DNA of 64,000 bases from Acholeplasmatales bacterium. GTDB lineage: Bacteria; Bacillota_I; Bacilli_A; ML615J-28; CAG-313. Positions within the stretch are counted from its first letter, which is position 1; each line of letters begins with the position of its first letter. Below, in pieces: positions 42,852-61,924 of the stretch. The stretch spans positions 26,041 through 90,040 of the forward strand of contig DPOU01000008.1 in the NCBI GenBank assembly GCA_003539625.1. Direction: 5' to 3'. The notes below the pieces were generated by a model, which did no database searches, was not told the DNA's origin, and saw only the letters and a list, made by a program, of their open reading frames with translations. A program made the position numbers and the translations under genes.

Positions 42852-42869
42852 ATATGCTTTTAGCATATA

Positions 42870-43029: not shown

Positions 43030-43212
43030 CACCCCAAAAAATGGGAAATTAACAAAATATTTATATTATTAAATTATTATAATAATATATATAGGCATCT
43101 ATTTTTAGATGAACCTCACCGTAGGGTGAGTTTAAAGTTGATATCAACGTGGCCACACACGATGATATATATTAAATAAACAAATACTTAAAAAATTTAA
43201 AGGAGAATTAAA

Positions 43213-43797
43213 ATGAAGAAAAATAGAATTTTAATTGCTGGTGTAATCACTGCATTCGTTGCATTAATTACATTATCTTTAGTTTCAGGTACTTGGGCTA
43301 AATATACTAGCAAAGTACAAGGCTCTGATACTGCAAGAGTAGCAAAATGGTCATTTAATTATAATGGTGCAGCTTTAAATTCAGAAACCATTACTATTGA
43401 TTTATTTAAGGATAATTATGATGGAACAGTAGTAGCAGAAAATAAAGTTGTTGCTCCAGGCACTAAAGGTCAAACAAAATTTGAATTAAAGAACATGGGT
43501 GAAGTTAAAGCAAATGCACAAATTGTTTTAGAAATTACAAATTTAAATGAAATTCCACTTACATATAAAGTTGATGGTGTAGCACAAGAAGTAACTGGTG
43601 GAAAAATTATAATTGATGCGGTTGAATTAGGAATTGGTGCAGAAGCTAAAACTATTACTTTATCTTGGGAATGGCCATTTGAAACAAAAGATACTGGCGG
43701 TAATATTATTGGTGATACTACTGATACTAATTTAGGTAAAGAAGGAACAGCAACAGTAACTGTTAAAGCAACTGTTACTTTCACTCAAGTTGACTAA
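43213..43797 (+). CDS. TasA/camelysin/BsaA-like secreted protein with a SipW-type signal peptide; putative major fibre subunit
   Basis: 194 aa. SD AAAGGAGA. Basic n-region plus h-region, then SGTWA-KYTS. VAPGTKGQTKFELKNMGEV strand pair. Ends TVKATVTFTQVD. Confidence 0.65.
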   Translation: MKKNRILIAGVITAFVALITLSLVSGTWAKYTSKVQGSDTARVAKWSFNYNGAALNSETITIDLFKDNYDGTVVAENKVVAPGTKGQTKFELKNMGEVKANAQIVLEITNLNEIPLTYKVDGVAQEVTGGKIIIDAVELGIGAEAKTITLSWEWPFETKDTGGNIIGDTTDTNLGKEGTATVTVKATVTFTQVD

Positions 43798-43847
43798 TTC
43801 AAAGAGTATAAAATAATTAGTAAATAAATTCAGTTAATTAATTAACA

Positions 43848-43907
43848 AGCCACAAAACAAAACATTAATACAAGAACAAAGATAAAATTGTGGCTTTATC
43901 TTTGTTC
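43848..43907 (+). terminator. nested hairpins after the putative major-subunit gene (partial terminator or attenuator)
   Basis: 13-bp stem GAACAAAGATAAA / TTTATCTTTGTTC. Alternative stem AAGCCACAA / TTGTGGCTT. Only a weak T-run follows. Confidence 0.45.
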
Positions 43908-44026
43908 CAACTGTTTTGTAAAAAGTAAGAATAGTGATATATATCACATTCTTAACAAAGTATATTATTTATATTGGTATATTTTGTTAAGAATATATAT
44001 GAATAACATTAAGGGGAGTATGTAAT

Positions 44027-44845
44027 ATGAGAAATATAGATAAGAAAATACTCAGTTATTATTTGTATTTTAGAACAATAAAAGATTATGACAAAAAAGT
44101 TGTAGCACGAGTTAAAGGAAACACAATATTATCAAATGATGAAGAATTCTTGGAAAATGTTTCTAGTGGTAAGTACGGCTTACAAATGGATGAGAGTTTA
44201 AAATACAATATATATAGTATTAAAAATAACAAAGTTGTAGCAAAAGTAGATAAACATTTAAATACCTATTCACTTAATGGAGTTTACTCAGGTACTTTGT
44301 ATGACATGACTAAATTCTTAAGAATTGTTGTTGGATGTATTGTCCTAGCATTAATAACTATATGTTTAGTTTTTACTAATATTGCTAAAACAAGTTCTGA
44401 TGTAAAACCTATATCATTAATTGTGAGTGAGATTGATGGTGGGATTGTAAGTACAGAATGGAACATTTTTGGAAAATATAAAGATGACAAGGTTATTTAT
44501 CCAGGTAAGAAAGGTGAATATTATTTTGAATTAATAAATAAAAATTCAAAAGCATTAAATATTGATATAAATTTAGATGAAGTAAATGAATATAGTATTC
44601 CGATGATATTTAAATTAAATTTGCATGAAAGTGATAATTCAAATATAAATGACTACTATGTACCTGCAAATAGTTTGGAACTAAATAATATTTATATTCC
44701 CGCAAACAGTTCAAGAATATTTAAATTAGAATGGTATTGGAAAAATAGTGGCACAAACGATAAAGATGATACACAAATTGCTTCTACAGGACTTGCCACA
44801 TATACAGTAAAAATAACTGTTAAATCAGTATTAGTATACGAATAA
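44027..44845 (+). CDS. type-II membrane protein: cytoplasmic N-domain + TM + TasA-like ectodomain (putative fibre anchor or assembly factor)
   Basis: 272 aa. About 95 aa lie before the TM (FLRIVVGCIVLALITICLVF). The ectodomain shares YPGKKGEYYFELINKNSKA and KLEWYWK...ATYTVKITVKSV with the 43213 product. Confidence 0.55.
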   Translation: MRNIDKKILSYYLYFRTIKDYDKKVVARVKGNTILSNDEEFLENVSSGKYGLQMDESLKYNIYSIKNNKVVAKVDKHLNTYSLNGVYSGTLYDMTKFLRIVVGCIVLALITICLVFTNIAKTSSDVKPISLIVSEIDGGIVSTEWNIFGKYKDDKVIYPGKKGEYYFELINKNSKALNIDINLDEVNEYSIPMIFKLNLHESDNSNINDYYVPANSLELNNIYIPANSSRIFKLEWYWKNSGTNDKDDTQIASTGLATYTVKITVKSVLVYE

Positions 44846-44867
44846 AATTTTGAAAGGGGGTACCCTA

Positions 44868-47138
44868 ATGACTAAAAAAATAAAAATTAAAAAAGCTTAT
44901 ATCTTTGCGTTTGCTTTTGTGGTACTTGTTGTATTACTAGCTATTAGTGGTACCAAAAGTAGCAAAACAGATGCTAAGTATTTTACGGAATTAGATAGTG
45001 ATGCTACAACAGCCCATGTTGCAAAATGGGACATAAAAGGTGTAACTAAAAGAGATGGCAAATCTATTAATCTTGCTGCAGGTTTCAGTAAAAAACTAAA
45101 TGAGGGAGATACAGGAAGTTGGTATTTTCAAATTTCTAATTATTCGGAAGTTTATGCGGCAATATCTAAGCGTTCTAAAATACGTTTTAGATTAGACAAT
45201 GATGGCTATACAGATACTAGTGTTAACGAAATAAAATGGGATTTTTTAGAAGATCTTTCAAATAATCCGATAGAAAATCCAATAAGTTTTGAAGTTAACA
45301 TATACAATTCAAGTGTTGAAAATTTATTAACTTATCAATTAAAAAGCAATCCATCAGAAGTTATTTCATATGACGCCTATTCGCAATTAACAAATAAAGC
45401 AGATTATGATGAAGTTATAAATTCTAATGTTGCGAATTGCGAGTTATTCAAAACTTCAAGTTCACTAACATTTAAAAAAGCCTTCGAAAAAGATGAAAAT
45501 GGTAAAACGATATATTTCTATTATGCTGATTTAAGTTTTGAAAATATTACCGATAGCCAATTAGATGAAATATTAAAACTTGGTTTAGGTGATACCAGAG
45601 AAGACGTGACAATGCAAATAAAATGGAATATCGGTCAAAACGTAGGTGGCGGTTCTATCAGCAACAATACTTACAAAATATATGAACTAACCGACAATCT
45701 TTTAAACGCAACTTATAAAAGTTATGAATTAGTTAAAAATAATTCAATATATATATCATATGATTTGGTTGAAAATGCTAATGAATATAAATATTACTAT
45801 GTTAGTAATTCATCTTCTTCAGTAGTTAAAAACGGATATGGTGCTAATGTTGAATATAACGGAAGTTATCTAAATGTAAGTAGTTATTCTAATTTGGTTG
45901 ATTATTATAATAATTATACTAGTGAACCAACATTTAGTTTACAATCCATTACATTCGACTACTATGATAATAAATGGAATTCAAAAGATGCAACAATAAG
46001 TGCGTTATCATCCAAAAAATATAGTGAATTGACCATTGATGATATTGCTAAATTAGAAAGCTGTTCAGTATATGAAACACATTATTTTGCTTATAACTAT
46101 TCAACTGCCGATTTAAATAACTACGCTAATTATATGAATTATAAAAATTATAAATCATTTATCGAGAACACAAAATTCATAACAAATGATGCTACTAGAA
46201 CATTTGATGTTAATAAATATCAAATTACAGATAGAGTAACTGCTACAGGTAATGATTATATTGTTACAAGTGTTAGTAGTCTTAATGCTAAACAATATTT
46301 AGATACATTTAAAAATAATGAACCAGTTTTTACAATAGCTAATAAAGAAGTTACATTTAGTGAATTAACTACTAGTGATATTACAACAATTACAAGCGAT
46401 ACCTATAGTAATTTAGTTTATAATCAATATTTAAAATTTTTAAATGATTGTAAATATGAGTCTAATAATAATTCGCTTGGTGCCACATCTAAAGCTAAGA
46501 TAAAAGAATACTATGAAATAGGTACAACGACATATTGTATTGTAACATTTGACAATGATGCTAAAACGTATTTAGATGGATTAACAAATAATGAACCTGC
46601 ATTTATATTTAATGCAACGACCGTTTATTATAGTGATTTAACTCCAACTCAGAAGAATTTACTAAATAGTTATAACGATACAAATACACTTACTGATTTA
46701 AAAAATTTAGTAGATAAATATCGTTATTTAGAACATTATAATTATCTTACTAAATCAACAACAATTGAGGAATCATTTGTTATTGATGGTAAAACTTATT
46801 ATATAGTTTCTACTAAACTTAACTTGTATGAATATAATGTATATTTCCACTCTAATCCTATTGGAGAACCATTATTTACTTTTACTAATGCGTTAGGGAA
46901 AGAAATAACTGTAAGATATAAACTATTAACTACAGAACAAAAAAATACGATAATGGGTTATACAGTTTCAACTAATCCAACCTATAGTGAATTAACAAAA
47001 ATGATTGAAAAATTAACTTTAGAACAATATGAAAAGTTTGTTTTAGATAATATAAAAGCAATGACTAATGCATCATATTTGGAATATGGTTTAAAGTGTA
47101 GAATTGAATTTGAACTATATGTAGAACAGGTTGACTAA
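44868..47138 (+). CDS. TasA-like protein carrying a ~400-aa tandem-repeat insertion
   Basis: Start at ATG 44868, after AAAGGGGG. Signal helix, then DAKYFTE and TAHVAKWDI. Four repeats, each containing N-EP-x-F. Ends RIEFELYVEQVD. Confidence 0.6.
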   Translation: MTKKIKIKKAYIFAFAFVVLVVLLAISGTKSSKTDAKYFTELDSDATTAHVAKWDIKGVTKRDGKSINLAAGFSKKLNEGDTGSWYFQISNYSEVYAAISKRSKIRFRLDNDGYTDTSVNEIKWDFLEDLSNNPIENPISFEVNIYNSSVENLLTYQLKSNPSEVISYDAYSQLTNKADYDEVINSNVANCELFKTSSSLTFKKAFEKDENGKTIYFYYADLSFENITDSQLDEILKLGLGDTREDVTMQIKWNIGQNVGGGSISNNTYKIYELTDNLLNATYKSYELVKNNSIYISYDLVENANEYKYYYVSNSSSSVVKNGYGANVEYNGSYLNVSSYSNLVDYYNNYTSEPTFSLQSITFDYYDNKWNSKDATISALSSKKYSELTIDDIAKLESCSVYETHYFAYNYSTADLNNYANYMNYKNYKSFIENTKFITNDATRTFDVNKYQITDRVTATGNDYIVTSVSSLNAKQYLDTFKNNEPVFTIANKEVTFSELTTSDITTITSDTYSNLVYNQYLKFLNDCKYESNNNSLGATSKAKIKEYYEIGTTTYCIVTFDNDAKTYLDGLTNNEPAFIFNATTVYYSDLTPTQKNLLNSYNDTNTLTDLKNLVDKYRYLEHYNYLTKSTTIEESFVIDGKTYYIVSTKLNLYEYNVYFHSNPIGEPLFTFTNALGKEITVRYKLLTTEQKNTIMGYTVSTNPTYSELTKMIEKLTLEQYEKFVLDNIKAMTNASYLEYGLKCRIEFELYVEQVD
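45850..47080 (+). repeat. in-frame tandem coding repeats (four units; the last three spaced 273 nt apart)
   Basis: The GAACC(A/T) codons for the E-P of the EP-x-F motif sit at 45924, 46320, 46593 and 46866, giving spacings of 396, 273 and 273 nt. Confidence 0.75.
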
Positions 47139-47140
47139 TT

Positions 47141-47716
47141 ATGGCTAGAAAAATCTTTCGTGTTTTTGAAACCATTATCTTTATTGTTATGATTATTATA
47201 ATTATCTTGTGTTGTATATATATTGTAAAAAGAAAAATTGATAAAGAGAATCCAACTAAAATGTTAGGCCATTATACTTTTGTGGTTATATCTGATAGTA
47301 TGTATAATCCAGAATATAAAGAATCAATTTCTAGAGGTGATATGGTTTTTGTAAAACCTAGAAAGAATGCAGAATACCAAGTAGGCATGATTGTAGCGTA
47401 TCAAAAACCAGGCGATAGTAAACCAACTACGCATCAAATAATTGCTAGAAATGGCGATATGGTTATAACAAAAGGAATAAATGCTAATAATGATCCTGAT
47501 CCTGAATTTGATGTCAACTATATTATAGGTGAGGTAACTTCAGTTTGGCGAGGATATTCAAAAACGGTAAATTGGATAAAATCACCTATTGGAATTGTAA
47601 CTATTGCGCTTATTGGTTTTATACTAATTGAAGGTTTAAATTTAATTGATAAATATTTAAAGAAAGTAGAAGGAAAAACTACTTCAAATAAAGAAGAAGT
47701 AGAACAAAATAAATAA
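47141..47716 (+). CDS. SipW-type signal peptidase I, copy 2 (divergent)
   Basis: 191 aa. N-terminal TM, VISDSM, GDMVFVKP, THQIIA, TKGINANND, C-terminal TM. ATG lies 2 nt after the preceding stop. Confidence 0.75.
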   Translation: MARKIFRVFETIIFIVMIIIIILCCIYIVKRKIDKENPTKMLGHYTFVVISDSMYNPEYKESISRGDMVFVKPRKNAEYQVGMIVAYQKPGDSKPTTHQIIARNGDMVITKGINANNDPDPEFDVNYIIGEVTSVWRGYSKTVNWIKSPIGIVTIALIGFILIEGLNLIDKYLKKVEGKTTSNKEEVEQNK

Positions 47717-47730
47717 GAAAGGGGAAGAGG

Positions 47731-48423
47731 ATGTTAAAGAGTATTTTAAAAACTAAAAAAATATTGTATGTGTTTTTATATGTAGTATTTGTTTTTGTCG
47801 TGTATTTAACATCATCGACTCTAGCAAAATACAGTACTAAACAAGATCCTAGTGGAAACTTTAATATTGGTGATAAGTTATATTTCTGTTATGAACGTGG
47901 TGATTTATATCGTAATAATCAAGTTATAATTGGAGTTCCAATTAATGAATATATTTATGATGAAAATGGTAAAGTGATTGAAGAAGTAAGAAGAATTGAA
48001 ACAATGAATGTTGCGCCAGCAGATACACTAACATATCATTTTAGTGTTGCAAATGTGAATGAAGCAACAGGTGAACAAAATGGTGTAGCAGGATATTTTA
48101 AGATTTCCGCAACTTCTATATTAAGTATGCCCGCATATCGTAATCCTGATGGAACATCACAAGCAAAAACTTGGAACATTGCATGTACAATTTCTTATCG
48201 AAAAGTATATAAAAATGGTACCAAAACGCAATTTAAAAATTTAACAAGTGATGCAAATATTGATTTACCAGTCTATGATGAAAATGACGATAGCACATTT
48301 ATGAAGTATGAATTTCAAGTATATGTAGTATTAGATGATCAAGTAAGAGCAAGTTCAGATGACGATTACGTTGACGCAACATCTACAATATATTTGTTTA
48401 TTGATGCTACTAATAATGATTAG
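47731..48423 (+). CDS. TasA-like secreted protein (putative minor subunit)
   Basis: 230 aa. Signal helix, then STLAKYSTKQ. VAPADTLTYHFSVANVN strand pair. C-terminal TSTIYLFIDAT. Confidence 0.5.
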   Translation: MLKSILKTKKILYVFLYVVFVFVVYLTSSTLAKYSTKQDPSGNFNIGDKLYFCYERGDLYRNNQVIIGVPINEYIYDENGKVIEEVRRIETMNVAPADTLTYHFSVANVNEATGEQNGVAGYFKISATSILSMPAYRNPDGTSQAKTWNIACTISYRKVYKNGTKTQFKNLTSDANIDLPVYDENDDSTFMKYEFQVYVVLDDQVRASSDDDYVDATSTIYLFIDATNND

Positions 48424-48434
48424 GAGGTGCTACG

Positions 48435-49601
48435 ATGAATTTAAAAAAGAAATTCTTTTGTTTACTGACAGTATTAGTAATAATAAGTGGAGTATTGTTT
48501 GCAATGCTAATCAATAGCATTCCTAAACCAGCTGAAATTGAAGGTAAATATATTAAAAGTGAAAAAGATGAAATTAGAGGATATTATACTTCGTTGTACT
48601 TTGATTATACTGGACAAAATTCAGTAGTTGTATTAGAAAATGGTGTAAGTTATGCATCGTTTAAATTAACGAATTATATTGGTGAAGATGTAACCAAACG
48701 TGATATTGAATATAATATAACAACAGTTAAAAAGTTTTATGACGCAAAAGGTAATGAAATAACTAACCCTGATGGTAGTGAGGACTTATATGTATTAGAT
48801 GTATGGGGAACTCCTCAAAAGGTTGGCAATGATACTTGCAAATACGAATTTAAAGTAGTAAGTAATGATGGTGAAAAAAGAGGTGACAACTATCTATTTT
48901 CTTATGAAACTAGTGGTAGCATCTCAATAGGTAAAACTCATAACTTAACAGTTGGAATTAAAAGAAAAAGTGATGTTGAAGAATTGAAAGATACAATAGA
49001 ACATATATCTATTGTAGTCCAACTTAATAAACCATATACACAAGTATATGTTATCAATATGATAGTATCTAATCGTTTAATTGCTTTTTCACAAATTGAT
49101 AATACTTTATTTGATATTGATTTTAAGACATTACAAATTCAAACCGCAAACGTATTTTCACATGCGGGGAAAGATGAAAGATATTCACCAGATGGAACTA
49201 GTCTATACGATGGTAAAGCATTTTTAGTAGAACTTACATGGAAAAATTTAATTTTTAATGAAGATGATTTAAATAAAATACATAATGGCTTTGATTTAGA
49301 ATTACAAGAAAAACTGTTAAGTGGTGATGCAAGTAATATAGATATAAGCAAACCTTATGTTTTTAGTATTACTAGTTCAAATAAATCATCAGGAACGCTG
49401 GTTTTATATATACCACAAGCTGCAGATTTTAGCCTTGATTTTTTACCAACAAATCAAAGTGACTATGAAATTAAGGCCAAAGTAAAAGTTTGTATGAAAG
49501 ATAATGAATATAAGTTATATGATACTAGTCTTGGTGGTTATGAAATGGTAGATGATTACATTATTGTAATGTCAAGTGATAAAACAAAAATTACAAAATA
49601 A
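48435..49601 (+). CDS. secreted or anchored protein with the [AG]KY motif (putative two-domain minor subunit)
   Basis: 388 aa. SD AGGAGG. Signal/TM helix, then IEGKYIKSE. Composition is beta-rich. Confidence 0.45.
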   Translation: MNLKKKFFCLLTVLVIISGVLFAMLINSIPKPAEIEGKYIKSEKDEIRGYYTSLYFDYTGQNSVVVLENGVSYASFKLTNYIGEDVTKRDIEYNITTVKKFYDAKGNEITNPDGSEDLYVLDVWGTPQKVGNDTCKYEFKVVSNDGEKRGDNYLFSYETSGSISIGKTHNLTVGIKRKSDVEELKDTIEHISIVVQLNKPYTQVYVINMIVSNRLIAFSQIDNTLFDIDFKTLQIQTANVFSHAGKDERYSPDGTSLYDGKAFLVELTWKNLIFNEDDLNKIHNGFDLELQEKLLSGDASNIDISKPYVFSITSSNKSSGTLVLYIPQAADFSLDFLPTNQSDYEIKAKVKVCMKDNEYKLYDTSLGGYEMVDDYIIVMSSDKTKITK

Positions 49602-49621
49602 ATAAGAAAGGAGAGCTACCT

Positions 49622-52600
49622 ATGAAAAATAGCTCCAAAAGAATATATATTATTGGTTCCTTTATTATGGTATTGCTAATTGGATTGAGCATTTTTCTAA
49701 TTGGTATGTTATCCAATAATACAAAGAAACCTCAAGCCGAAGATGGTTCAGTATACTATACTATAAAGGTTCCTAAAATAACTGTAGTTTCAATATATGT
49801 AACTGGACAAGGAGTAAATAAAACTTCTTCAACATTATATGAAGACACATATACAGTAGAAGAGGGTACAAAAGTTGTATTAAGAGCAGTGAATGAAACC
49901 AAAATATTTACTAATTGGTTAATAACTGATGAAACTGAAACAACTATTATTGATAATACATCAACAACTGCTCGACTTGAAATAACCCCTAATCAAAATC
50001 TTGTTGTAAGTGTTAACCGTCGTGATCCATTAATAAGTGATTATGGGAAATATATGGCAAATAGCTTTGTATTAACAAAAGATAGTGAATTCTTACTTCT
50101 TCAAAAAATATTTGATGCGGGAGAAGACATTTCAAAGATAACTAATGTCATTGATGCATATGAGTACTTCTTCAAAGAAAGTAGCGATTATCAAAATGAA
50201 ACTAATAAAGTTTCTGCTATAGCAAATAAATATTTTGATATTATCCAAAATGGTTATTATTTAGTATCACACAGTTTTTCTATTTTAAATGGTGGCTTTG
50301 AAGGAATAGGCAATGAAACATATCCTTTCAAGGGTGTCATCTGTGGATTGAATAATAATAGTATATCTAATTTATTTTTAACAATTACTGATGTAGCGGA
50401 AACAGAAACAGGAAATCTATATCGTGGTTTGTTTAAAATCATTGATAATAATGCCTTAATTAGAAATCTTAACATTAATATGTCAATTGGTGTAAATGAT
50501 ACCACTAATAGTACTGGTGTTGATAATGTTTATGCGGGGGGAGTTGCAGGTATAAATAATGGTGCGATTATCATAAATTCTAAAGTTACAACTAGACATT
50601 CAATAATCTGTCAAAATGCTAATATATATGCAGGAAGTATTGCGGGGATGACTAATAACGGAAGTATCGATGATATAAGTGACATAACTTGCAATCAAGC
50701 AAATTCTGCTTGGATAATTGAAACAAAAGCAATAGATAAAAATATATATGCTGGTGTTGTTTCAGGAAAAGCAATTAACACTTATGTAAAGAAAATAGTT
50801 GTTAAAGCAGATAATTTTTCAATCGGCACAAGAAATAATTCTAGTAATGTTTATAGTAGTTCAACAAATATATATTTAGGAACATTATTTGGACAATATA
50901 TTGCAGAAAGTCCAATGAGATTAGAAAATATAGATGTAAACTCAAATGATAGCGTAAATTATCGAGCATTAATTTCAACAGGTAATGCATATGTAAGTCC
51001 ATTTATAGGATATATTAATGCAAGTTCAGATATTATAATTGGTAAAGTAACTCTAAATTTTGGTAAAGCTAAAGCAATGTTTAATGCAACTACAATTGAT
51101 TTAAATAGTAAAGGAAACGTGTACGTTGGTGGATTAGCTGCTAAAGTTGAAGGTAATAATTTGAAAGCTAATGATGATTTTAAATTGTTTATTACAAAAG
51201 AATCAATTGATGGTAAATCATATAATAAATATGGTTCATTATTTACTGGTAATGTAACAATTGAAGCAATGCAAAATGGAACTGGTGATGGAAGTACTTA
51301 TGGAAAAGCCATAACAGGTGGTCTTATTGCAAAGGGATATTTTGATATAAATGGTGATGTAAATAAAAAATCAGAAATTATTTTAAATGATCAATCATCA
51401 ACCTTAAATATCAAATCAATACAATCTTCTACCGCAAGCACTACAAATAGTAATAAATCAGATATTGAACATTGTATTTCAGGATTAGTATTTGGTATTA
51501 TTAGTGAAAATTCTATAAAAGGTTATAATTTCGAATATATTAACATATATGCGAATAATGCAAATATAATTTCAACACGTGAACTTGATTCAAGAAATGT
51601 TGGTGATTTACACACAAGTGGATTTGTGACATATGCAAATGGCGGTACTTTCTCAAACATAAAGATGTTGTTAAATAAGAATGTAATGGAATCAAATAGC
51701 TTATCATATGCAGTTCAATATGGTTCTAGTGCTAGTAGTATAGAAGGAAATAATACTTTTACATCTTCATTTATTGCTGAGGCAAAGGGTGCTACTGTAG
51801 ATAATATTTTAATAACTAGCTATGATTATGAAAAAGAAGAAGAAATTGGAACGGATTTAAAAATATCAGCGATTCAAAATTCACAAACTGGTCAAGTTAA
51901 CAAAAACTATTATTGTGAAAACTATGTTGGTGGTTTAATTGGTAGATTATTTGATACAAATGTAACAAATTGTATATATTATGGTTCATTAAGTGAAGAT
52001 GATTATATTCAAATGCAAGGACATCAAAGTCCGGACTCAGCTTTTATTGGTGGATTAATAGGCTTTATTAAAAATAGTTCAACTGTAACTATAAGTAGCA
52101 ACAGAATAATTAATGTAACAATTTATGGTTCCGCAACTTCAACTAATGCTTCCTATAGTAATCCTGATATATATGTTGGTGGTGTGATTGGAGCTGCATA
52201 TTTTGAAAATTCTAGTATTGCTAGAACAATAAAACTAGATGATAACTATTTATGTAACTGTGATATAGTAGGTATTGGAAATGAAAGAATAGAAGTTTAT
52301 GTTGGTGGTATAATAGCTGGACTTACTTGGGCAAGTTCTACAACTACTATAAGTAATTGCTATGTATATGGATCAAAAATAGTTGCAACAACTAGTGGTA
52401 TAAAAAATAATGGTCATGGTAAAGCATATGCAGGTGGTATTTGCCCTTATGTATTTTCAGCTTCAAGAGTCGTTGTTAAAAACTCAGTTGTTATTAGTAC
52501 AGAGATAAAATCAACAAGTCAAAGTGAAGCAGCATATGCGTATGGTTTAACTGGCGGAAATGGCAAAGCAAATAGTACCATTAATAATTGCTATACAAAT

Positions 52601-55600
52601 GCAGATATTTCAGCAAGTGGAAGTAATGGTTCATATGTATATCCAATTGCTGATGCTTTAAATAATAATTCTGCTGCCAATTATTATGTAAAACAAAACA
52701 TTACTAATATTACTTCTAGTACATATGGGACAGCTTTAGATTTTTCTACTAAATCATTCACAACTTCACAAGCAGTTGATATTTTTACTGAAATGGAAAA
52801 TTCAGACAAATATAGTAATAAATATTATCCAATAATTAAAGGAAAAGATAAATTTGAGGTAGCTTATAATTCCGGGAGCGTGACTACAATTAGTCGTATT
52901 AAAACTAATGTAACTGATGTTGCTGAAATTTGGATTAATGCTAAATCAAGTGGTTCAAGTAGTAGACCAAATAATAGCATATGGGTTTCTAAAGATACAA
53001 TTTTTGATGATGGTTGGTTCAAACTAGGTGAAGTAATGCTTGTGTCAGGAACATCATCAAATGATGCTTATATAACTGATTACCGAATAACTTATTCTAA
53101 AGATGATGCACTATATGAATATAAAGATGGCATGTTTGTCAATAAAAACTATCCATATAATAGTGTTGAAAAAATAGGTTATGAAGAAGCTGATACAAAC
53201 GAACTATTTAATGGTAAAAAAATTCATAAAGAAATTACAATTAAATTAATCGATAGAATGCCAAATTTAAATATTGGTTTTACTTCAACAGGTACATCAT
53301 CAAGTGAATATCAACCAGTTTTCTATGATAAAGATGGCAATGAAATTACTAATTTTTCTTTAGAATATTTTGGTGTATATAACTACGAGTATATTGAAAA
53401 TACCAATTTATGTACTTATGAGTTTACTTTTGTTCCTAATATCGACTATATGCAAAATAATACATTCTATCTACAATTTAAAGTAGGTAGTAGTGATCAA
53501 TACTCTTTAGAAATTATTAAGATAAATTTAATTTGTAATACTATAAATTTAGTTGGTGGTACATATGTAGATTATACAAAACCATTAAACTATGATGAAG
53601 AAAATATTGGAACAAGCGGTAAACCATATTTGATTAGAAAGGGTAGTACTACTAAATTTATCCCAATCATAACAAGAGGAAATGATGAAAATAATACTAG
53701 ATTAATTGATGAATTAAATGTTGATAAAGTAACTTATTCAGTAGATGGTGGTGGAACTATTAATGCCAATGGTGAATTTAAGGCAAATGCTAATGATTCT
53801 TCAACTACAACATATATAGTTACAATAAAATTAAAGAATTCTGATGTATCAATAAAATTATACTTTAAATTAGTTGATAAATATGATGTAACGTATGCAT
53901 CAATAGGCTCAACAATCGATGCCTTGACTTACGCGACAAGTGATGCAAATTACTACATTTTGAAGAGTACAAATCTAGAACATTATGGCGGATTCCCTAA
54001 AAAATTTGACGTTGCTATTGGCAGTGTTACATATGATTTGAATGAAATAATTACTAAAGGATGGATATATGACAAAACTGGTCAAACTATTAATGCTTGG
54101 GATGTAGATGTAGAATATTACGAATTGCGCATTCCTCAAAATAGTATAACTGGTACTATTAACATTGATATTGAATTAAACATTGTATATTCAATTAATT
54201 TTGAACTTCAATGTGAAAACTTTAATCCTAATTTTAGTGGAAATAAGAGTAAAACATTTAAAGTAATTGCTGGAACAAAATTTGGTGAATATTTTACTGA
54301 TAAAATACAAAAAGAAATTAGTTCTTGGGTAGATTCAGCTAGAGTATTTGGTTACGTGCCAAATGGCTTTTATCTTGTTGATTCCGCAAATACCGTAGAA
54401 TCATATGGCGACAGTTTAGATAAAATTATTGAAAATAACATTGAAATTCAAACATCATATTCGTTCTATGCAAGATGGAGCTTCTTAATAGAAATAATTG
54501 AAGCACCAGGTACCAATGTTGTAACAAGTTTCCCTGATAGCTTTATGTATAAATATGGTAAAGATATTAGTGCAGAAATGACTGATGAAGAAATTGCGGC
54601 AATAAAAAAATACAACGAAAGCTTGAGTTTAAATCGCGCAGTAACTATTCCTATTAACAATAATAGAGGTTATATTTTTACAATTGTAAAAGATAAAGGA
54701 TTTATTGGAGAAGCTGAAGTTAAAGCATACATTGTATCAAAAGATTCTAATTCTTCAACTGAAAAAATAATCAAAGAAATAAATGTTGAAAAATATCATG
54801 AGAATATGTATTTGTATTACATAGCTCCTGAAAAAATAACTGGATATCTAGTAATTGTAACGTCAGTAAGTAATTCTGAAATAATTGTTGGTGAGAATAC
54901 CGCAAAAGTTTCGGATGAAATTCTCCCTGAAGATGGTATCTATACATTTAAATATATAGTTAATCATCGCAATACAGAAGATAGTAAGAGTTACATATAT
55001 GATAGTGGTTTAACAAATCGTTCTAGTAATTTAAGCTTAACAAAAGACTTATTAATTCAATTTATGAAACAAACTTATGATTTAACTGGAAGAGTTATAA
55101 ATGCAGATAAACGTAATTTACCAGCTGGCACAACAATAAAAGTATTCTATAATAAATATGTAAATGGAACAAAAAACGATGCGGATACTACGGTTGGTAT
55201 ATATACTGTTACAAGCAAAAAAGGCATATCTGAAGTTAAACTTAGTGAATTTACTAAATTGAACAAAAATGAAAAAGCATTTGAAGATATTACTTTTGAA
55301 GAATTACTTGGTGATAATGAAAGTGTATCTGAAGTATATTACTTTGTAATAACACCACCTAATGGTTACAATATGTATGATGACGAGGGCTATATTGACA
55401 ATAATATGATTTATGTTGGATATTTAGATGAAGCGCGTGAAGATAGATATGTTCACGGAGTAAGATCAAAAGAGGGGTTGGCTAATATTCCTCTAGAAGA
55501 CCAAGATATCTCGCATATAACTGAACCATTATTATTTGAAACTTCATGCCAACAAAAGCTATATTCAGTTACTCCTTCTCGTAATACTACACTTGTAAAA

Positions 55601-56401
55601 AATAGCAATATTAATTATACTTTTACTGATTATACTAAATATTCAATAATTTCGTTTGATATCTTAAATGCTGATGTAATGTTAAATGATGGAATTATAA
55701 AAATGTATGATGATGTAAATAAAAATTCTATAATTAAATCTCACGAAATTATTAATGGTATTTTAGAATTAGAGTTAGTATTAGGATATGGTAAAGGCGA
55801 TATTGTAATATATGCAAGTAAAACAGGAAGTAGTGATAGCTATGTACATGTTGCAACAATAACTGTCGATGATTTTAATTACAAAACATATAAAGTAACT
55901 TTTGATGCAAGTGAAGACTACCATTATTTTATGATTGATAATGCGTCTCAAAATGAAATACACTTGTCAAAAATTGGATATTCAGAAATAAATAAGGGAT
56001 TGTTGTATGAATTTAAAGTATCTGATTTAGTCCAAAAAACAACAAGTGGGACAACTTACACAGTTATGAAAGATATCGTAGGTGATTCAAGACACGATGG
56101 TAAGAGTTTTATTCTAGCAATTCAATATAAAAATGGTAATGATATTGTTAGTAATTTACCAAGTACTGGTATATCAATTACAATTAATGGGGTAACATAT
56201 TTACCTTATGAAAATGACTTACCAGGAAGGCATACTGCTTATTATGATTTATCAAGTATCTTAAAAGATTTAGATTTATCTAGTATTGAAATTACAATTA
56301 ACATACCAGATGGCTATACAATTTCAACAATAGAATTGTTGGAAGCTAAGTCTATTCAAAAGCCTTCAATGGCAGAAATTAGAACAATTTATACATTTTA
56401 A
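49622..56401 (+). CDS. giant N-terminally anchored surface protein with a GLUG-like beta-helix repeat region
   Basis: 2,259 aa. One TM at residues ~9-30. FEGIGNETYPFKGVICG entry motif. At least 9 repeats of Y-[AV]-G-G-[LIV]-[AI]-[GA], several followed by N-C-[IY]-Y (ENYVGGLIGRLFDTNVTNCIYYG, VYVGGIIAGL...ISNCYVYG). A ~1,200-aa beta-rich C-terminal half. No LPXTG. Confidence 0.6.
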   Translation: MKNSSKRIYIIGSFIMVLLIGLSIFLIGMLSNNTKKPQAEDGSVYYTIKVPKITVVSIYVTGQGVNKTSSTLYEDTYTVEEGTKVVLRAVNETKIFTNWLITDETETTIIDNTSTTARLEITPNQNLVVSVNRRDPLISDYGKYMANSFVLTKDSEFLLLQKIFDAGEDISKITNVIDAYEYFFKESSDYQNETNKVSAIANKYFDIIQNGYYLVSHSFSILNGGFEGIGNETYPFKGVICGLNNNSISNLFLTITDVAETETGNLYRGLFKIIDNNALIRNLNINMSIGVNDTTNSTGVDNVYAGGVAGINNGAIIINSKVTTRHSIICQNANIYAGSIAGMTNNGSIDDISDITCNQANSAWIIETKAIDKNIYAGVVSGKAINTYVKKIVVKADNFSIGTRNNSSNVYSSSTNIYLGTLFGQYIAESPMRLENIDVNSNDSVNYRALISTGNAYVSPFIGYINASSDIIIGKVTLNFGKAKAMFNATTIDLNSKGNVYVGGLAAKVEGNNLKANDDFKLFITKESIDGKSYNKYGSLFTGNVTIEAMQNGTGDGSTYGKAITGGLIAKGYFDINGDVNKKSEIILNDQSSTLNIKSIQSSTASTTNSNKSDIEHCISGLVFGIISENSIKGYNFEYINIYANNANIISTRELDSRNVGDLHTSGFVTYANGGTFSNIKMLLNKNVMESNSLSYAVQYGSSASSIEGNNTFTSSFIAEAKGATVDNILITSYDYEKEEEIGTDLKISAIQNSQTGQVNKNYYCENYVGGLIGRLFDTNVTNCIYYGSLSEDDYIQMQGHQSPDSAFIGGLIGFIKNSSTVTISSNRIINVTIYGSATSTNASYSNPDIYVGGVIGAAYFENSSIARTIKLDDNYLCNCDIVGIGNERIEVYVGGIIAGLTWASSTTTISNCYVYGSKIVATTSGIKNNGHGKAYAGGICPYVFSASRVVVKNSVVISTEIKSTSQSEAAYAYGLTGGNGKANSTINNCYTNADISASGSNGSYVYPIADALNNNSAANYYVKQNITNITSSTYGTALDFSTKSFTTSQAVDIFTEMENSDKYSNKYYPIIKGKDKFEVAYNSGSVTTISRIKTNVTDVAEIWINAKSSGSSSRPNNSIWVSKDTIFDDGWFKLGEVMLVSGTSSNDAYITDYRITYSKDDALYEYKDGMFVNKNYPYNSVEKIGYEEADTNELFNGKKIHKEITIKLIDRMPNLNIGFTSTGTSSSEYQPVFYDKDGNEITNFSLEYFGVYNYEYIENTNLCTYEFTFVPNIDYMQNNTFYLQFKVGSSDQYSLEIIKINLICNTINLVGGTYVDYTKPLNYDEENIGTSGKPYLIRKGSTTKFIPIITRGNDENNTRLIDELNVDKVTYSVDGGGTINANGEFKANANDSSTTTYIVTIKLKNSDVSIKLYFKLVDKYDVTYASIGSTIDALTYATSDANYYILKSTNLEHYGGFPKKFDVAIGSVTYDLNEIITKGWIYDKTGQTINAWDVDVEYYELRIPQNSITGTINIDIELNIVYSINFELQCENFNPNFSGNKSKTFKVIAGTKFGEYFTDKIQKEISSWVDSARVFGYVPNGFYLVDSANTVESYGDSLDKIIENNIEIQTSYSFYARWSFLIEIIEAPGTNVVTSFPDSFMYKYGKDISAEMTDEEIAAIKKYNESLSLNRAVTIPINNNRGYIFTIVKDKGFIGEAEVKAYIVSKDSNSSTEKIIKEINVEKYHENMYLYYIAPEKITGYLVIVTSVSNSEIIVGENTAKVSDEILPEDGIYTFKYIVNHRNTEDSKSYIYDSGLTNRSSNLSLTKDLLIQFMKQTYDLTGRVINADKRNLPAGTTIKVFYNKYVNGTKNDADTTVGIYTVTSKKGISEVKLSEFTKLNKNEKAFEDITFEELLGDNESVSEVYYFVITPPNGYNMYDDEGYIDNNMIYVGYLDEAREDRYVHGVRSKEGLANIPLEDQDISHITEPLLFETSCQQKLYSVTPSRNTTLVKNSNINYTFTDYTKYSIISFDILNADVMLNDGIIKMYDDVNKNSIIKSHEIINGILELELVLGYGKGDIVIYASKTGSSDSYVHVATITVDDFNYKTYKVTFDASEDYHYFMIDNASQNEIHLSKIGYSEINKGLLYEFKVSDLVQKTTSGTTYTVMKDIVGDSRHDGKSFILAIQYKNGNDIVSNLPSTGISITINGVTYLPYENDLPGRHTAYYDLSSILKDLDLSSIEITINIPDGYTISTIELLEAKSIQKPSMAEIRTIYTF

Positions 56402-56406
56402 AAAAG

Positions 56407-56437
56407 AACGTCAATCTTTAAAGAGGTTGACGTTTTT
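56407..56437 (+). terminator. rho-independent terminator ending the locus
   Basis: Stem AACGTCAA / TTGACGTT, then TTTT. Confidence 0.7.
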
Positions 56438-56487
56438 GAAAAAATGTGTATAATATATGTAATAAAATGATGTTGGGAGGAGCTATA

Positions 56488-57069
56488 GTGAAAAAAAGAA
56501 ATGAAAAGACTTTTAACAAAAAGAAAAATGAAATAATGGAAATAAGTTATGATTGTTATGCCGAACACGGATTAGCTGGAACAGGGATTAAAACAGTAAT
56601 GGATGCGTGTGGAATGTCTAAGGCAAGTATATATACATATTTCGATAGTATTGATGATTTAATACTTCAATCTACAGCTCATTTTATGATTGAAACTGAG
56701 TTAGCTTATATGAGATTAGCACCTAAGAAAATAGAAGATGTTGATAAATTTATTGATGAAACCCCATATTGGGCTAGTAAAAAATATGGTAAGAAATATC
56801 GACTCATGTACCAAATATATACACATCCCAAATATGTTGATTATGGTAAGAAATTCTTTGATGGTGTAAATAATAGATATATTGAATATTCTGAAACGCT
56901 TGAGAAAAATTTAGGAATACCCAAAGATGAACTATTGCCACTAATTTTTATATTCGTAAATGCAACAATTCACTACTCAGTATTTGAGGATGATTTCTAT
57001 TTAAAAGTTCAATTACAGCTAGTGAAAATGGCAATGGCACAATTAAGTGAAAAATATTTGAAAAAATAA
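56488..57069 (+). CDS. TetR/AcrR family transcriptional regulator
   Basis: Probable GTG start at 56488, 7 nt after GGGAGG. HTH GTGIKTVMDACGMSKASIYTYF. Confidence 0.75.
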   Translation: MKKRNEKTFNKKKNEIMEISYDCYAEHGLAGTGIKTVMDACGMSKASIYTYFDSIDDLILQSTAHFMIETELAYMRLAPKKIEDVDKFIDETPYWASKKYGKKYRLMYQIYTHPKYVDYGKKFFDGVNNRYIEYSETLEKNLGIPKDELLPLIFIFVNATIHYSVFEDDFYLKVQLQLVKMAMAQLSEKYLKK

Positions 57070-57787: not shown

Positions 57788-57832
57788 CTTCTATTAATAA
57801 TAACTAGTTCATATAATTAAGTGGTGATTAAT

Positions 57833-58927
57833 ATGCAAAAACACAAAATAGATTACAGTATTTTAATCGTAGTATCTATCTTAATAATATTTGGATTATT
57901 AATGGTATATAGTGCTAGTAATGTTGTTGCTTCCTATAAATATGATGATAAAGCATACTTTTTAAAAAGACAATTAATTTTTGCGATTATTGGTTTTTTC
58001 TGTATGATTTTAATGATTCATGTTGATATAAAGAAAATTTATAAATATACTATTTGGATATATTTAACTTCACTAGTATTGTTAATTTTAGTTTTGATAC
58101 CAGGAATTGGTCAAGTAAGAGGTGGCGCAAGAAGTTGGATTGGCATTGGTGCTTTTTCAATTCAGCCATCAGAATTTATGAAGCTAACAAGTATTTTATT
58201 AGTTGCTAAATGTTTAAATATTGAACAAAAAAACATAAAAAAACTATGGCCATTTTGTAGAACTCTTTTAATTATTATTTTTGCTTTTGGACTAATAATG
58301 TTACAACCCGATTTTGGAACTGGTTTAGTATTAGTTTTATCATGTGTGTTATTACTATTTAATGCGGGGGGAAGACTTAAATATTTTTTGATATTAATTG
58401 GAGCAGGATTAGTTGGAATAGTAGTTCTAATTGCAAGTGCTCCATATCGCTTAAATCGTATTTTTGCATTTATCAATCCTTGGAGTGATCCATTAGGTAG
58501 CGGATTTCAAGGTATTCAATCAATGTTTGCTATAGCACCAAGTGGATTATTTGGGTTAGGTTATAACAATAGTATGCAAAAACATTTTTTCTTACCTGAA
58601 CCACAAAATGATTTTGTTTTTGCGATAGTTTGTGAAGAATTTGGTTTAATTGGTGGTGGACTATTAATAGTAGGTTTTTTCTTTTTGATAATTAAGATAT
58701 TAAAAATAGCTATAAGTGTAGATGATAACTACTTAAAACTTCTAGCAATGGGAATAAGTATATCTTTATTTGTCCAAGTATTTATTAATATAGGAGTTGT
58801 AATAGGATTACTACCAGTAACAGGAATTACTCTTCCCATAATATCTTACGGGGGATCAAGTTTGGTACTTACCCTAATGTTTTTAGGCCTTGCTTTAAAT
58901 ATTAGCCAGTATACTGAGGAGTACTAA
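57833..58927 (+). CDS. ftsW: SEDS-family peptidoglycan glycosyltransferase (FtsW/RodA/SpoVE)
   Basis: About 364 aa. PSEFMK, QPDFGT and LPVTGITLPIISYGGSS blocks. Confidence 0.85.
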   Translation: MQKHKIDYSILIVVSILIIFGLLMVYSASNVVASYKYDDKAYFLKRQLIFAIIGFFCMILMIHVDIKKIYKYTIWIYLTSLVLLILVLIPGIGQVRGGARSWIGIGAFSIQPSEFMKLTSILLVAKCLNIEQKNIKKLWPFCRTLLIIIFAFGLIMLQPDFGTGLVLVLSCVLLLFNAGGRLKYFLILIGAGLVGIVVLIASAPYRLNRIFAFINPWSDPLGSGFQGIQSMFAIAPSGLFGLGYNNSMQKHFFLPEPQNDFVFAIVCEEFGLIGGGLLIVGFFFLIIKILKIAISVDDNYLKLLAMGISISLFVQVFINIGVVIGLLPVTGITLPIISYGGSSLVLTLMFLGLALNISQYTEEY

Positions 58928-59995: not shown

Positions 59996-60898
59996 ATTGA
60001 TTCATTTATAAAATATATTGACACTAATCAACTGGGTACAGTTGAAAAGAATAAAACATTTAAAGAACTTACCACTCTTAAAATTGGTGGGCTAATTAAG
60101 TGTTTATATATACCTAATACTCTTGATGATTTAATAAAAGCTTATAAATATATAATTAAAAATGATTTAAATTTCTTTATTATAGGAAATGGTTCAAATG
60201 TTCTAGCAAGTGATGAAGAATATAATGGAATTGTTATAAAACTCAACAAACTCAATAAAATTACGCAAATAGCAAAAGAATCATTTTTAGTAGATGCGGG
60301 GGCAAACGGAACTAAAGTTTCTTTAGAACTAGCAAAACTAGGCTACACTAATATGGAATTTCTTGCGACAATTCCTGGAACAATTGGGGGATTAGTTTTT
60401 ATGAATGCGGGGGCATATGGACAAGAGATTAAAGATATTGTTCAAGAAGTTACTTTTCTTGATGAATTAGGGAATTTAATTACTAAAAATATTTCAGAAT
60501 TAAATATGCAGTATCGTAGTAGTATATTTAAAGAAAAAAAGACAATCATTACGCAAGTAATGTTAAAACTAAATAAATTATCAAATAATTTATTACCATT
60601 AGAAAAAATTAAAACATACAAACAACTAAGAAAAAATACTCAACCTATTAATAACTATACAGCTGGTTCAACCTTTGAAAATCCAAAAGGCATGAAAGCT
60701 TGGGAGTTAATAGAAAATATGGGATTTAAGGGCTATCAAATAAATGGCGCAATGGTTAGTTATAAACATGCAAATTTCTTAATAAATTATCATAATGCTA
60801 GATACATTGATATGATTAAACTAATAAAAGAAATACAAGAAAAAGCTAAAAATGATTATGACATATCATTAGTATGTGAATGGGTTATTGTTAAATGA
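59996..60898 (+). CDS. murB: UDP-N-acetylenolpyruvoylglucosamine reductase, with a non-canonical start codon
   Basis: The reading frame is open from 59951. The N-terminal FAD domain (TTLKIGG, IIGNGSNVL) lies upstream of the first ATG at 60353. No in-frame ATG, GTG or TTG occurs before that. SD GAGGGGGA at 59979-59986, then ATA (59993) and ATT (59996). Confidence 0.75.
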   Translation: MDSFIKYIDTNQLGTVEKNKTFKELTTLKIGGLIKCLYIPNTLDDLIKAYKYIIKNDLNFFIIGNGSNVLASDEEYNGIVIKLNKLNKITQIAKESFLVDAGANGTKVSLELAKLGYTNMEFLATIPGTIGGLVFMNAGAYGQEIKDIVQEVTFLDELGNLITKNISELNMQYRSSIFKEKKTIITQVMLKLNKLSNNLLPLEKIKTYKQLRKNTQPINNYTAGSTFENPKGMKAWELIENMGFKGYQINGAMVSYKHANFLINYHNARYIDMIKLIKEIQEKAKNDYDISLVCEWVIVK

Positions 60899-60950: not shown

Positions 60951-61367
60951 ATGTATAATCACATAAACTTTTTTGACCTAAATAAATTAGGCCAAAATAA
61001 AAATCAATTAGAAAAAACAAATATTGAAATTGTAACACCTATTGAAGCATTATCTAAAGGAAATATGGATAAAAACTTATATAACCAATTTGAAAACTAT
61101 CAACCAGTATTATTAAACAAAAATAATCCTAATGATATGTTGAAAGCTTATAATTTCATGCTAATTGATTTACAACTTTATTTAGATGTTCATCCTGAAG
61201 ATGAAAATGTAAAAGAACTATTCAATGAATATGTTAGAAGATGGCATGAAACAAAAGAAAATGTTCAAAAAATCAATGGACCTTTGTATCTTGCTTCAAC
61301 AGCTGATTCTCAAAATTTAAATTGGGATTGGCAAAAAAAATGGCCTTTTGAGGGGAAGATGAACTAA
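60951..61367 (+). CDS. cotJB: CotJB-family protein with a CotJA-like N-terminal extension
   Basis: 138 aa. CotJB signature LIDLQLYLDVHPEDE. N-terminal PIEALSKGNMDKNLYNQFENY resembles the CotJA motif. Confidence 0.6.
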   Translation: MYNHINFFDLNKLGQNKNQLEKTNIEIVTPIEALSKGNMDKNLYNQFENYQPVLLNKNNPNDMLKAYNFMLIDLQLYLDVHPEDENVKELFNEYVRRWHETKENVQKINGPLYLASTADSQNLNWDWQKKWPFEGKMN

Positions 61368-61924
61368 TGGTAGCTTATTTAAAAATGTTAGAGTATCCTT
61401 TAAACATCACAAAAAAAGACTTAAAAATGGCTAAATTAATTGCAAGCCAATATGGCGGTCCTCAAGGAGAACTTGGTGCCGCAATCCGTTATTTAAATCA
61501 AAGATTAACAATGCCAGATGATTATGGTAGAAGTCTATTAAATGATATAGGAATAGAAGAACTAGCACATATCGAAATGTTACAAACAATGATGATGATG
61601 TTAATGAAAGATGCAACTATTGAAGAAATAAAAGCAGCAGGTTTAGAAAACCATTATACAGAACATGGGAAAGATATCTTCCCTGAAAATGAATCTGGTG
61701 TATCATTTACAACCGATTATATATCTTCAACTGGAGATGTAATCGCAAATATAGTTGAAGATATGGCAGCAGAACAAAAAGCAAGAGCAATTTATGAAAA
61801 TTTAATTAGGTTAACTGATAATGAAGAAGTACTACAACCCCTATTGTTTTTAAGACAACGGGAAATAGTACATTATCAAAGATTTAAAGAATTATTAGAA
61901 CATTACAAAAAAATGGGTTATTAA
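61367..61924 (+). CDS. cotJC: CotJC (manganese-catalase-family spore coat protein)
   Basis: 185 aa. SQYGGPQGELGAAIRYLNQR and EELAHIEM blocks. TAATG overlap with the upstream gene. Confidence 0.8.
   Translation: MVAYLKMLEYPLNITKKDLKMAKLIASQYGGPQGELGAAIRYLNQRLTMPDDYGRSLLNDIGIEELAHIEMLQTMMMMLMKDATIEEIKAAGLENHYTEHGKDIFPENESGVSFTTDYISSTGDVIANIVEDMAAEQKARAIYENLIRLTDNEEVLQPLLFLRQREIVHYQRFKELLEHYKKMGY

Follow-up and report, generated by a model that had tools for sequence, protein, structure and literature searches.

A 2,259-residue GLUG-like beta-helix protein closes a conserved operon with two SipW-type signal peptidases in an Acholeplasmatales bacterium

The DNA analysed here, referred to throughout as the window, is a stretch of 64,000 nucleotides from the genome of an Acholeplasmatales bacterium (assembly GCA_003539625.1, contig DPOU01000008.1, positions 26,041 to 90,040 of the forward strand). 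Its far longest open reading frame (ORF), of 2,259 codons and with an ATG start, encodes a protein that we call the giant, and it is the last gene of an operon that also specifies two signal peptidases of the archaeal/SipW type and five further proteins. We propose, with a confidence that is evenly balanced, that the giant is a Sec-exported surface protein that serves as the ligand-binding (adhesive) part of a SipW-dependent surface assembly. Since the same small partners and a dedicated peptidase are encoded with it, the giant is probably the sticky part of a surface-fibre system that has not been described. Export, retention at the surface, fibre formation, contact with the partners and ligand binding are all steps that we infer. 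The gene itself is real, conserved and unannotated: an uninterrupted frame of 6.8 kb in DNA of 28% G+C, together with full-length homologues, is not the work of chance.

The giant gene and its operon

The operon comprises the following genes.

42028 to 42687, + strand: sipW1, archaeal/SipW-type signal peptidase I (TIGR02228, 72.8 bits against 51.85)
43213 to 43797, + strand: f194, small exported protein with a GTWA-KY segment, candidate major subunit (sequence and profile)
44027 to 44845, + strand: f272, internal membrane helix and C-terminal f194-like domain (f194 profile)
44850 to 47138, + strand: f762, A-K-Y protein, conserved at both ends and variable and expanded in between (sequence comparison)
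47141 to 47716, + strand: sipW2, archaeal/SipW-type signal peptidase I (TIGR02228, 62.8 bits against 51.85; Pfam S26)
47731 to 48423, + strand: f230, exported A-K-Y protein whose N-terminal half is homologous to f194 (hhalign)
48435 to 49601, + strand: f388, exported, with a G/S-[KR]-Y junction; its gene always immediately precedes that of the giant
49622 to 56401, + strand: the giant gene (P0001), 2,259 amino acids (aa), last gene of the operon, an ATG-started ORF with homologues

The ORF call agrees with an earlier sequence-only reading of this DNA, which had given the same frame and strand and had placed its start 20 nt past the preceding gene. The stop of f388 indeed ends at 49601, and the 20-nt gap holds a Shine-Dalgarno sequence, AAAGGAGAG. 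A scan of positions 42000 to 56500 for tandem repeats found two short arrays of two copies each and nothing more.

Conservation of the cassette

A word-indexed search returned 71 clusters, the window's own included, mostly full length and named in their sources only as "hypothetical protein"; four of the clusters carry Flg_new repeats in C-terminal extensions. Among species-representative genomes, 23 loci encode a relative of the giant; the names given to their metagenome-assembled genomes (MAGs) are Bacilli, Mollicutes, Anaeroplasmataceae, Erysipelotrichaceae, "Staphylococcus sp. CAG:324" and "Coprobacillus sp. CAG:698". A single Clostridia MAG has a relative as well, at 25% identity, and in its locus (L024) f230- and f388-like genes stand ahead of a giant of 4,240 aa.

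The 23 loci were compared by tblastn with the operon proteins of the window, and in all of them the giant gene comes immediately after homologues of f230 and f388. Twenty loci offer 4 kb or more of upstream DNA; 19 of them have f762, and 18 have a sipW2-like gene between f762 and f230. The genes sipW1, f194 and f272 usually precede the f762 cassette; they are found downstream of it in one locus (L017) and elsewhere in another (L019). Since the placement of these three genes varies and the order of the others is conserved, the operon can be divided into a module A (sipW1, f194, f272) and a module B (f762, sipW2, f230, f388 and the giant).

The conserved core of the giant was found in 22 of the 106 genomes of the order (15 of the 67 of high quality), and f388 occurs in the identical 22. 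The f194 profile matches in 35 of the 106, namely those 22 and 13 others, nine of the 13 at E 1e-23 or better. The sequence-only reading had asked whether orthologous loci always carry such a giant gene. All genomes of the order that have f388 also have the giant; not every f194-type locus does. One refuting case named there, a giant that is an unrelated insertion into the operon, does not apply.

Five of the 13 genomes that have f194-like genes and no giant were inspected at their loci. In one (L035, 558-8381 on the - strand), sipW, f194-like genes and a second sipW are followed by an unrelated ORF of 2,607 aa that is rich in G-G rungs; its best BLASTP match has E 0.4, and it has no Pfam match. 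In another (L038, 12339-16502, + strand), a protein of 1,388 aa with a GLUG match at E 4.5e-25 is encoded 1.8 kb downstream of an f194-like gene. One further f194/SipW locus has no large gene in its operon, and the remaining two genomes gave only a sipW1-like or an f194-like match. Drawn from three loci, this picture is in keeping with a shared f194/SipW base on which the large partners can be exchanged.

The N-terminus of the giant: signal peptide or anchor

The regions of the giant protein to which we refer in this and the following sections are these.

49622 to 49738, + strand: basic residues, a hydrophobic helix of 22 aa (aa 10-31) and a polar spacer ending in PQA (aa 37-39); Ala junction in 24 of 24 sequences
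49751 to 50026, + strand: Ig-like beta-sandwich, aa ~44-135 (strands at model residues 10-99, pLDDT ~90)
50081 to 50248, + strand: segment of four helices (aa ~154-209) ahead of the beta-helix or forming its cap (model; conserved DYGKYM just upstream)
50255 to 52696, + strand: right-handed parallel beta-helix, aa ~212-1025 (model and structural alignment)
51902 to 52501, + strand: tile aa 761-960, over the cut-off of Pfam GLUG (PF07581) with 27.5 bits in three stretches
52859 to 55642, + strand: beta-sandwich (Ig-like) array with few alpha/beta inserts, aa ~1080-2007 (model, generic multi-Ig matches)
54239 to 55408, + strand: best-conserved family core, aa 1540-1929, with the blocks EAPGT, KYHENMYLYY and TPPNG (alignment, HMMER)
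55643 to 56002, + strand: galactose-binding-like jelly-roll resembling carbohydrate-binding module (CBM) 32 and discoidin, aa ~2008-2127 (structural alignment, Z 8.6-10.1)
56003 to 56398, + strand: C-terminal beta-sandwich with conserved RHDGK and KPAMGEVR blocks (model, alignment), kept in the relic of genome G009 described below

The only hydrophobic stretch of the giant is aa 10-31, IIGSFIMVLLIGLSIFLIGMLS. In all 24 sequences (the window protein and 23 homologues) an Ala junction lies 7-13 residues past the hydrophobic run, at the end of a polar spacer of that length and just ahead of the first Ig-like strand. Typical junctions, with a slash at the presumptive cut, are V-N-A/A, V-S-A/A and L-S-A/G; the window protein has P-Q-A/E. 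The pattern scan of the N-termini missed two sequences, in both of which T-x-S-A/G is seen by eye; where it found a run, this measures 16-25 residues across the homologues (22 in the window).

The conserved Ala junction looks like a signal-peptidase I site, and from the sequence the helix could serve as a signal anchor or else be cleaved off as a signal peptide. By the -3/-1 rule of signal peptidases, a Pro at -3 makes a poor site. Since the helix is long and the window protein has Pro at -3, an uncleaved anchor is a possible outcome. The description of the giant as membrane-anchored in the sequence-only reading therefore holds as regards a single N-terminal hydrophobic helix; the anchoring itself is put in doubt by the junction, which resembles a signal-peptidase I site in all 24 sequences.

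An uncleaved helix would suit a stand-alone, membrane-tethered protein in which the helix anchors a long stalk, and in which the small proteins are helpers of export, folding or wall passage, or a separate product. The length of the hydrophobic run is more like that of a membrane helix than of a signal core, the P-Q-A junction is a poor one, the giant has no wall-sorting signal in a genome with no detected sortase, and no f194-like domain is found in it. On the other side stand the Ala junction in every sequence and the perfect co-occurrence and adjacency with f230, f388 and sipW2, which argue for a joint product. We regard the tethered protein as unlikely, yet as the strongest of the alternatives considered here.

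As to the wall-sorting signal, there is in fact an LPSTG string at aa 2179, so the earlier statement that the giant has no LPXTG is literally wrong; the string is non-conserved, no hydrophobic tail follows it and a search for sortase (PF04203) found none in the 94%-complete genome. Likewise, the giant was said to have no [AG]KY motif, and a GKY is present at aa 142-144, within the conserved DYGKYM and away from the signal sequence.

The N-terminal half: a GLUG-type beta-helix

An AlphaFold2 model of aa 36-1110 (mb6627d8ca791), built on 24 homologues, has a mean predicted local distance difference test score (pLDDT) of 88.9 and a predicted template-modelling score (pTM) of 0.88. It consists of an Ig-like domain, a helical cap and one continuous right-handed beta-helix of ~800 aa. 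The Ig-like module that had been postulated past the N-terminal helix is thus seen in the model, and the helix that had been placed at about nt 50290-52850 agrees with it; the sequence said to open this region, FEGIGNETYPFKGVICG, begins at aa 226 (nt 50297).

The repeat described in the sequence-only reading is real, although it was overstated. At least nine Y-[AV]-G-G-[LIV]-[AI]-G units were claimed; the literal pattern occurs three times, at aa 304, 768 and 851, and nine units are reached only with the relaxed pattern G-G-[LIVF]. Of the N-C-[IY]-Y strings said to follow several units, the exact form occurs once (aa 783), and N-C-x-x follows a unit four times.

Pfam and NCBIfam scans of the whole giant named no family, and sequence-profile searches of the PDB with each half found nothing. 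On the tile of aa 761-960, the best-conserved part of the N-terminal half, GLUG (PF07581) scores 27.5 bits against a cut-off of 20.5 (E 3.5e-6); elsewhere it is weaker: a tile of 450 aa gives 19.0 bits, and that of aa 231-630 gives 14.3. Since the match appears on tiles only and recurs in 1 of 24 homologous fragments, membership of GLUG by sequence is borderline.

Structure speaks more clearly. Foldseek with the N-terminal half gave 0 matches at E up to 0.001, the best being 3n6z (BACOVA_03286) at E 0.01. Structural alignment (VIA) was run on the Foldseek candidates and then independently on 48,161 representatives. Among the candidates, 7uvk (Z 16.8), 6xjb (16.3), 6xja_P (16.2) and 3n6z (15.3, 288 of 339 residues aligned) lead, with 262-288 residues aligned; tailspikes, alginate epimerases and polygalacturonases stand at Z 10-13. 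The search of representatives gave the same order, 7uvk at Z 16.2, 3n6z at 15.3 and 7jgj at 14.9, and most generic beta-helices reach 13.2 or less. The GLUG-type beta-helix proposed from sequence is supported by the PF07581 score on the tile and by the best structural matches, IgA1-protease beta-helices and 3n6z.

The giant therefore has a right-handed beta-helix like the solved GLUG domains, that is, 3N6Z and the N-terminal beta-helices of the IgA1 proteases of S. pneumoniae (6XJA, 6XJB, 7JGJ) and G. haemolysans (7UVK), with which it shares G-G-[LIV]-x-G rungs. The likeness amounts to Z 14.9-16.8 over 262-288 residues, with a root-mean-square deviation of 3.0-3.8 and 15-16% identity. It is the C-terminal part of the giant's helix, from ~aa 564, that aligns to these domains, the helix of the giant being about three times longer (~800 aa against ~290 aa). 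Unlike the M26 IgA1 proteases, the giant has no M26 catalytic domains, no HExxH, no G5 domain and no LPXTG signal; its helix is followed by ~1,200 aa of beta-sandwiches, and its gene stands in a SipW operon.

Given that the best structural matches are beta-helices of M26 IgA1 metalloproteases, one could imagine a protease directed at host proteins, of the IgA1-protease type or another. The matches are confined to the N-terminal, non-catalytic helix of those enzymes (chain residues ~778-1079), no HExxH or HxxEH motif occurs across the 2,259 aa, no peptidase family appears in the Pfam and NCBIfam scans, tiles included, and the C-terminal half offers beta-sandwich arrays only. The protease is thus very improbable and, with neither HExxH nor a peptidase family match, nearly excluded; for the same two reasons, what the giant shares with these proteins is a binding module and not an enzyme. 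In the pneumococcal IgA1 protease, the beta-helix is described as non-catalytic, as touching the IgA1 Fab and as gating the active site (an excerpt of PMC7695701).

A second enzymatic alternative is a surface-displayed carbohydrate-active enzyme, in which the beta-helix would be the lyase, hydrolase or epimerase and the jelly-roll its CBM, as in tailspike depolymerases and in the PL6 and GH28 families. The matches at Z 9-13 include many lyases, polygalacturonases, alginate epimerases and phage depolymerases; the giant has a CBM-like domain; and Q752, N753, E766, H801, D805 and D849 form an invariant polar patch in the best-conserved part of the beta-helix. Yet the closest folds, the non-catalytic IgA1-protease helices and 3n6z, lie ~2.5-3.5 Z above most enzymes, and the pectate-lyase, GH28, Beta_helix and NosD models of Pfam match none of the tiles at E up to 10. 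Nor was a catalytic constellation recognised, catalytic residues not having been assessed in the family test. We hold an enzyme of this kind to be improbable, if less so than a protease.

The C-terminal half: beta-sandwiches, a jelly-roll and a private core

The model of the C-terminal half (m438b15aa4f3f, aa 1070-2259; pLDDT 79.8, pTM 0.52) is a chain of beta-sandwich domains with few helices. Foldseek found generic multi-Ig proteins only, namely complement C5, alpha-2-macroglobulins, gp210, GhpA and a pilin. The ~1,200 aa in which no motif had been recognised indeed match no sequence family; the model nevertheless shows beta-sandwiches and a CBM32/discoidin-like jelly-roll. The latter, at aa 2008-2127, aligns over 100-115 residues at a modest Z of 8.6-10.1 (root-mean-square deviation 2.5-3.0) with CBM32, CBM6, CBM36, CBM29, reelin subrepeats, gingipain adhesin domains and discoidin. 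Galactose-binding-like folds make up most of the top 50 matches in both structural searches with this half, which barely probed the other parts of the model. Pfam scans of the giant, whole and in tiles, gave no carbohydrate-binding-module match.

Conservation in the family peaks in blocks at aa 1600-1640, 1720-1800 and 1880-1920, and is least at aa 920-1280. HMMER with the core, aa 1540-1929, against 1.84 billion cluster representatives returned only 43 proteins at E up to 0.001, of which 38 reach E 1e-30 or better. Nearly all measure 1,900-2,900 aa and have the core in a corresponding relative position. The segment is confined to this narrow family of giants. A look-up of the same segment in the Atlas gave scores of at most 0.84 to generic clusters of Gram-positive surface domains and was uninformative. 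Separately, a thioester or isopeptide reading was considered and rejected, the sole C-Q string (aa 1976) being non-conserved.

The peptidases and the small exported proteins

Both sipW1 and sipW2 fall short of the Bacillus SipW equivalog (76.5 and 40 bits against a cut-off of 190). One ordinary LepB-type enzyme is encoded elsewhere in the genome, to which these two SipW-type peptidases are additional. A hydrophobic segment that ends in [AGS]-[KR]-Y is common to f194, f762 and f230, and f388 has it in variant form; in f194 the end is G-T-W-A-K-Y.

In the window, the f194 profile has further matches in the C-terminal domain of f272 (44480-44824, E 1.9e-12) and in the N-terminal half of f230, for which hhalign gives a probability of 95.3%. 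Between f194 and f388, hhalign aligned the signal region alone, at a probability of 17%. The layout of f272 is an N-terminal part of ~95 aa, a membrane helix ending in I-A-K-T and the f194-like domain; this protein is a candidate for the membrane base of the assembly, or else for a further SipW substrate. As for f762, it is ~350 aa longer than its homologues (379-501 aa), with its first ~280 and last ~120 residues conserved and a middle that carries repeated helical segments of the type Y-S-E-L-T.

A terminator-like hairpin of 13 bp with a T-rich tail lies at 43874-43907, between f194 and f272 (a consensus match only). Its place past f194 would fit a major subunit made in excess, and the hairpin may act as an attenuator to adjust the ratios between subunits. 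Near the operon, Rfam gave neither a riboswitch nor any other RNA family, and a promoter scan was not above shuffled sequences (114 found against 120.9 expected). The gap of 525 nt between sipW1 and f194 (window 42688-43212) has no Rfam match at E up to 1.

Comparison with known systems and a model of the assembly

The closest parallel is tapA-sipW-tasA of B. subtilis, in which a SipW-type peptidase likewise stands beside small exported beta-rich proteins (an excerpt of PMC9674648), and in which minor accessory subunits accompany a likely major one. The present operon differs in having two peptidases, five [AGS]-[KR]-Y or related proteins, no PF12389 match and a partner of 2,259 aa that has no counterpart there. 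In TasA fibres, the N-terminal strand left by SipW cleavage is inserted into the following subunit, the first strand possibly being supplied by TapA, according to the same excerpt. We borrow this strand-insertion mechanism, by analogy, as a proposed model for the operon.

In terms of function, the arrangement recalls the tip adhesins of chaperone-usher and sortase pili: a big binding protein ends the operon, several minor subunits and one likely major one precede it, and a hairpin follows the gene of the major subunit. Unlike in those pili, no chaperone, usher or sortase was detected, and no pilin domain was recognised in the giant.

SipW-family peptidases have been proposed as pilus-assembly factors in uncharacterised loci of Bacillota under the name CoCoPALM; the eLife paper names the system and defers its description (PMC11090510). 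Our literature search found the name only in that paper and its preprint. Unlike CoCoPALM, the operon has no McrB-like GTPase nearby: none of the scanned ORFs of the window is AAA_5 or McrB-like, and the 10 AAA_5 matches of the genome are all on other contigs. Nor did the search, which left supplements aside, find a paper that describes a SipW operon with a giant beta-helix protein.

We propose the following sequence of events. The giant and the small proteins would be exported by the Sec pathway, and sipW2 would mature f762, f230 and f388, the proteins with an [AGS]-[KR]-Y junction. These three would then associate with the giant, for which the conserved core of aa 1540-1930 is the candidate docking region, and would hold and present it on the cell, possibly on a shaft of f194, by strand complementation of the TasA kind. 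The beta-helix and the jelly-roll would be displayed as binding surfaces, and their target would be a protein or a glycan of the gut environment or of another cell.

It is tempting to go further and to see in the operon a sortase-free, chaperone-free, heteromeric Gram-positive pilus, with f194 as the shaft, f272 as the membrane base, f762, f230 and f388 as adaptors matured by their own SipW paralogue, and the GLUG/CBM giant attached by donor-strand complementation. It would be the counterpart, in the TasA lineage, of the tip fibrillum of chaperone-usher pili, with a giant "cargo" that is interchangeable between species. In this full form the proposal is unlikely, and we offer it as speculation.

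Several observations weigh against the giant as the adhesive part of such an assembly. Ligand binding is suggested by analogy of fold only. The giant family is patchy (22 of 106 genomes), and since 13 genomes have f194-like genes and no giant, the f194 system would be independent of it. Comparison of f194 with both halves of the giant by hhalign found no f194-like domain, so no docking site has been identified on the giant. Nothing computed ties the small proteins firmly to TasA: with E up to 10, PF12389 (TasA/camelysin) finds none of 15 f194 homologues and nothing in the genome, with a positive B. subtilis control, and searches of Pfam, NCBIfam and PDB with the f194 family gave nothing meaningful. 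The sole computed link is a language-model neighbour in the Atlas (rank 27, score 0.95), a lead only, and a likeness of G-T-W-A plus an aromatic residue to the signal end of TasA is presumed. As to the beta-helix, PF07581 does not match the whole giant at E up to 0.01 and matches 1 of the 24 homologous N-half fragments at that limit; the autotransporter passenger Vag8 reaches Z 14.9, equal to one IgA1-protease entry, the next match being at 12.7. In accordance with these results, the "fibre operon" of the sequence-only reading is supported as a conserved operon of which the giant is the last gene, and is only a proposed one as regards fibres, the small proteins having no TasA/camelysin match and the SipW-type peptidases alone being identified; PF12389 finds no match in the giant either.

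Gain and loss of the operon

In the window, the operon sits between tgt-g307 and (TetR, DUF308) spoVE-murG. The same site was compared in three genomes of the genus that lack the operon. In one, g307 adjoins spoVE, leaving an empty site, and in the second a gene of 726 aa lies between the two. The third (G009, L039:2790-3587) has an open frame of 266 codons between g307 and a gene of 730 aa; this frame, which lacks an N-terminal signal, matches the giant at its aa 2024-2257 only (42% identity, E 1e-45). It appears to be a deletion relic, or possibly a reused C-terminal fragment. The operon is accessory and is gained or lost as a whole; its site in the chromosome is fixed, and at least one genome has kept a relic of its deletion.

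Other features of the window

Downstream of the operon, a SpoVE-like gene (57821-58927) scores 421 bits against the spoVE cut-off of 448.8. A murB-like ORF of 181 aa (60353-60898) has MurB_C and the end of the FAD-binding domain, and the 363 nt upstream of it hold no + strand ORF of at least 40 aa; this may reflect a truncated gene or a fault in the assembly. At 60951-61924 lie cotJB and a cotJC-like Mn-catalase gene, and the 1.42-Mb genome may be that of a very small spore-former.

Upstream, a protein of 595 aa (25874-27661) has four Flg_new (Listeria-Bacteroides) repeats as well as a GDSL lipase/esterase domain, and the SRP RNA (25763-25857) directly precedes its gene. Two ORFs of 662 and 731 aa upstream of dnaE (28426-32614) have no family match at E up to 0.001. 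A 6S RNA (7648-7834) and a TPP riboswitch (13993-14090, - strand) are both above the Rfam gathering thresholds.

Significance for the uncultured gut Bacilli

The operon is carried by uncultured Bacilli of the gut whose genomes measure 1.2-2.5 Mb and which belong to a little-known part of the gut microbiota. The present genome, in which no sortase was detected, still spends ~1% of its DNA on the operon (14.4 kb of 1.42 Mb). Since the operon is present in some genomes and absent from others, with an empty site and a relic within the same genus, selection that depends on niche or host is suggested. If it is true that a fibre displays the GLUG/CBM giant, then the range of TasA-type assemblies would reach from biofilm scaffolds to adhesin-presenting pili, and the operon would give a handle on the attachment of these bacteria to host or particles, through the giant as an antigen, its binding domain on glycan arrays and the presence or absence of the genes as markers.

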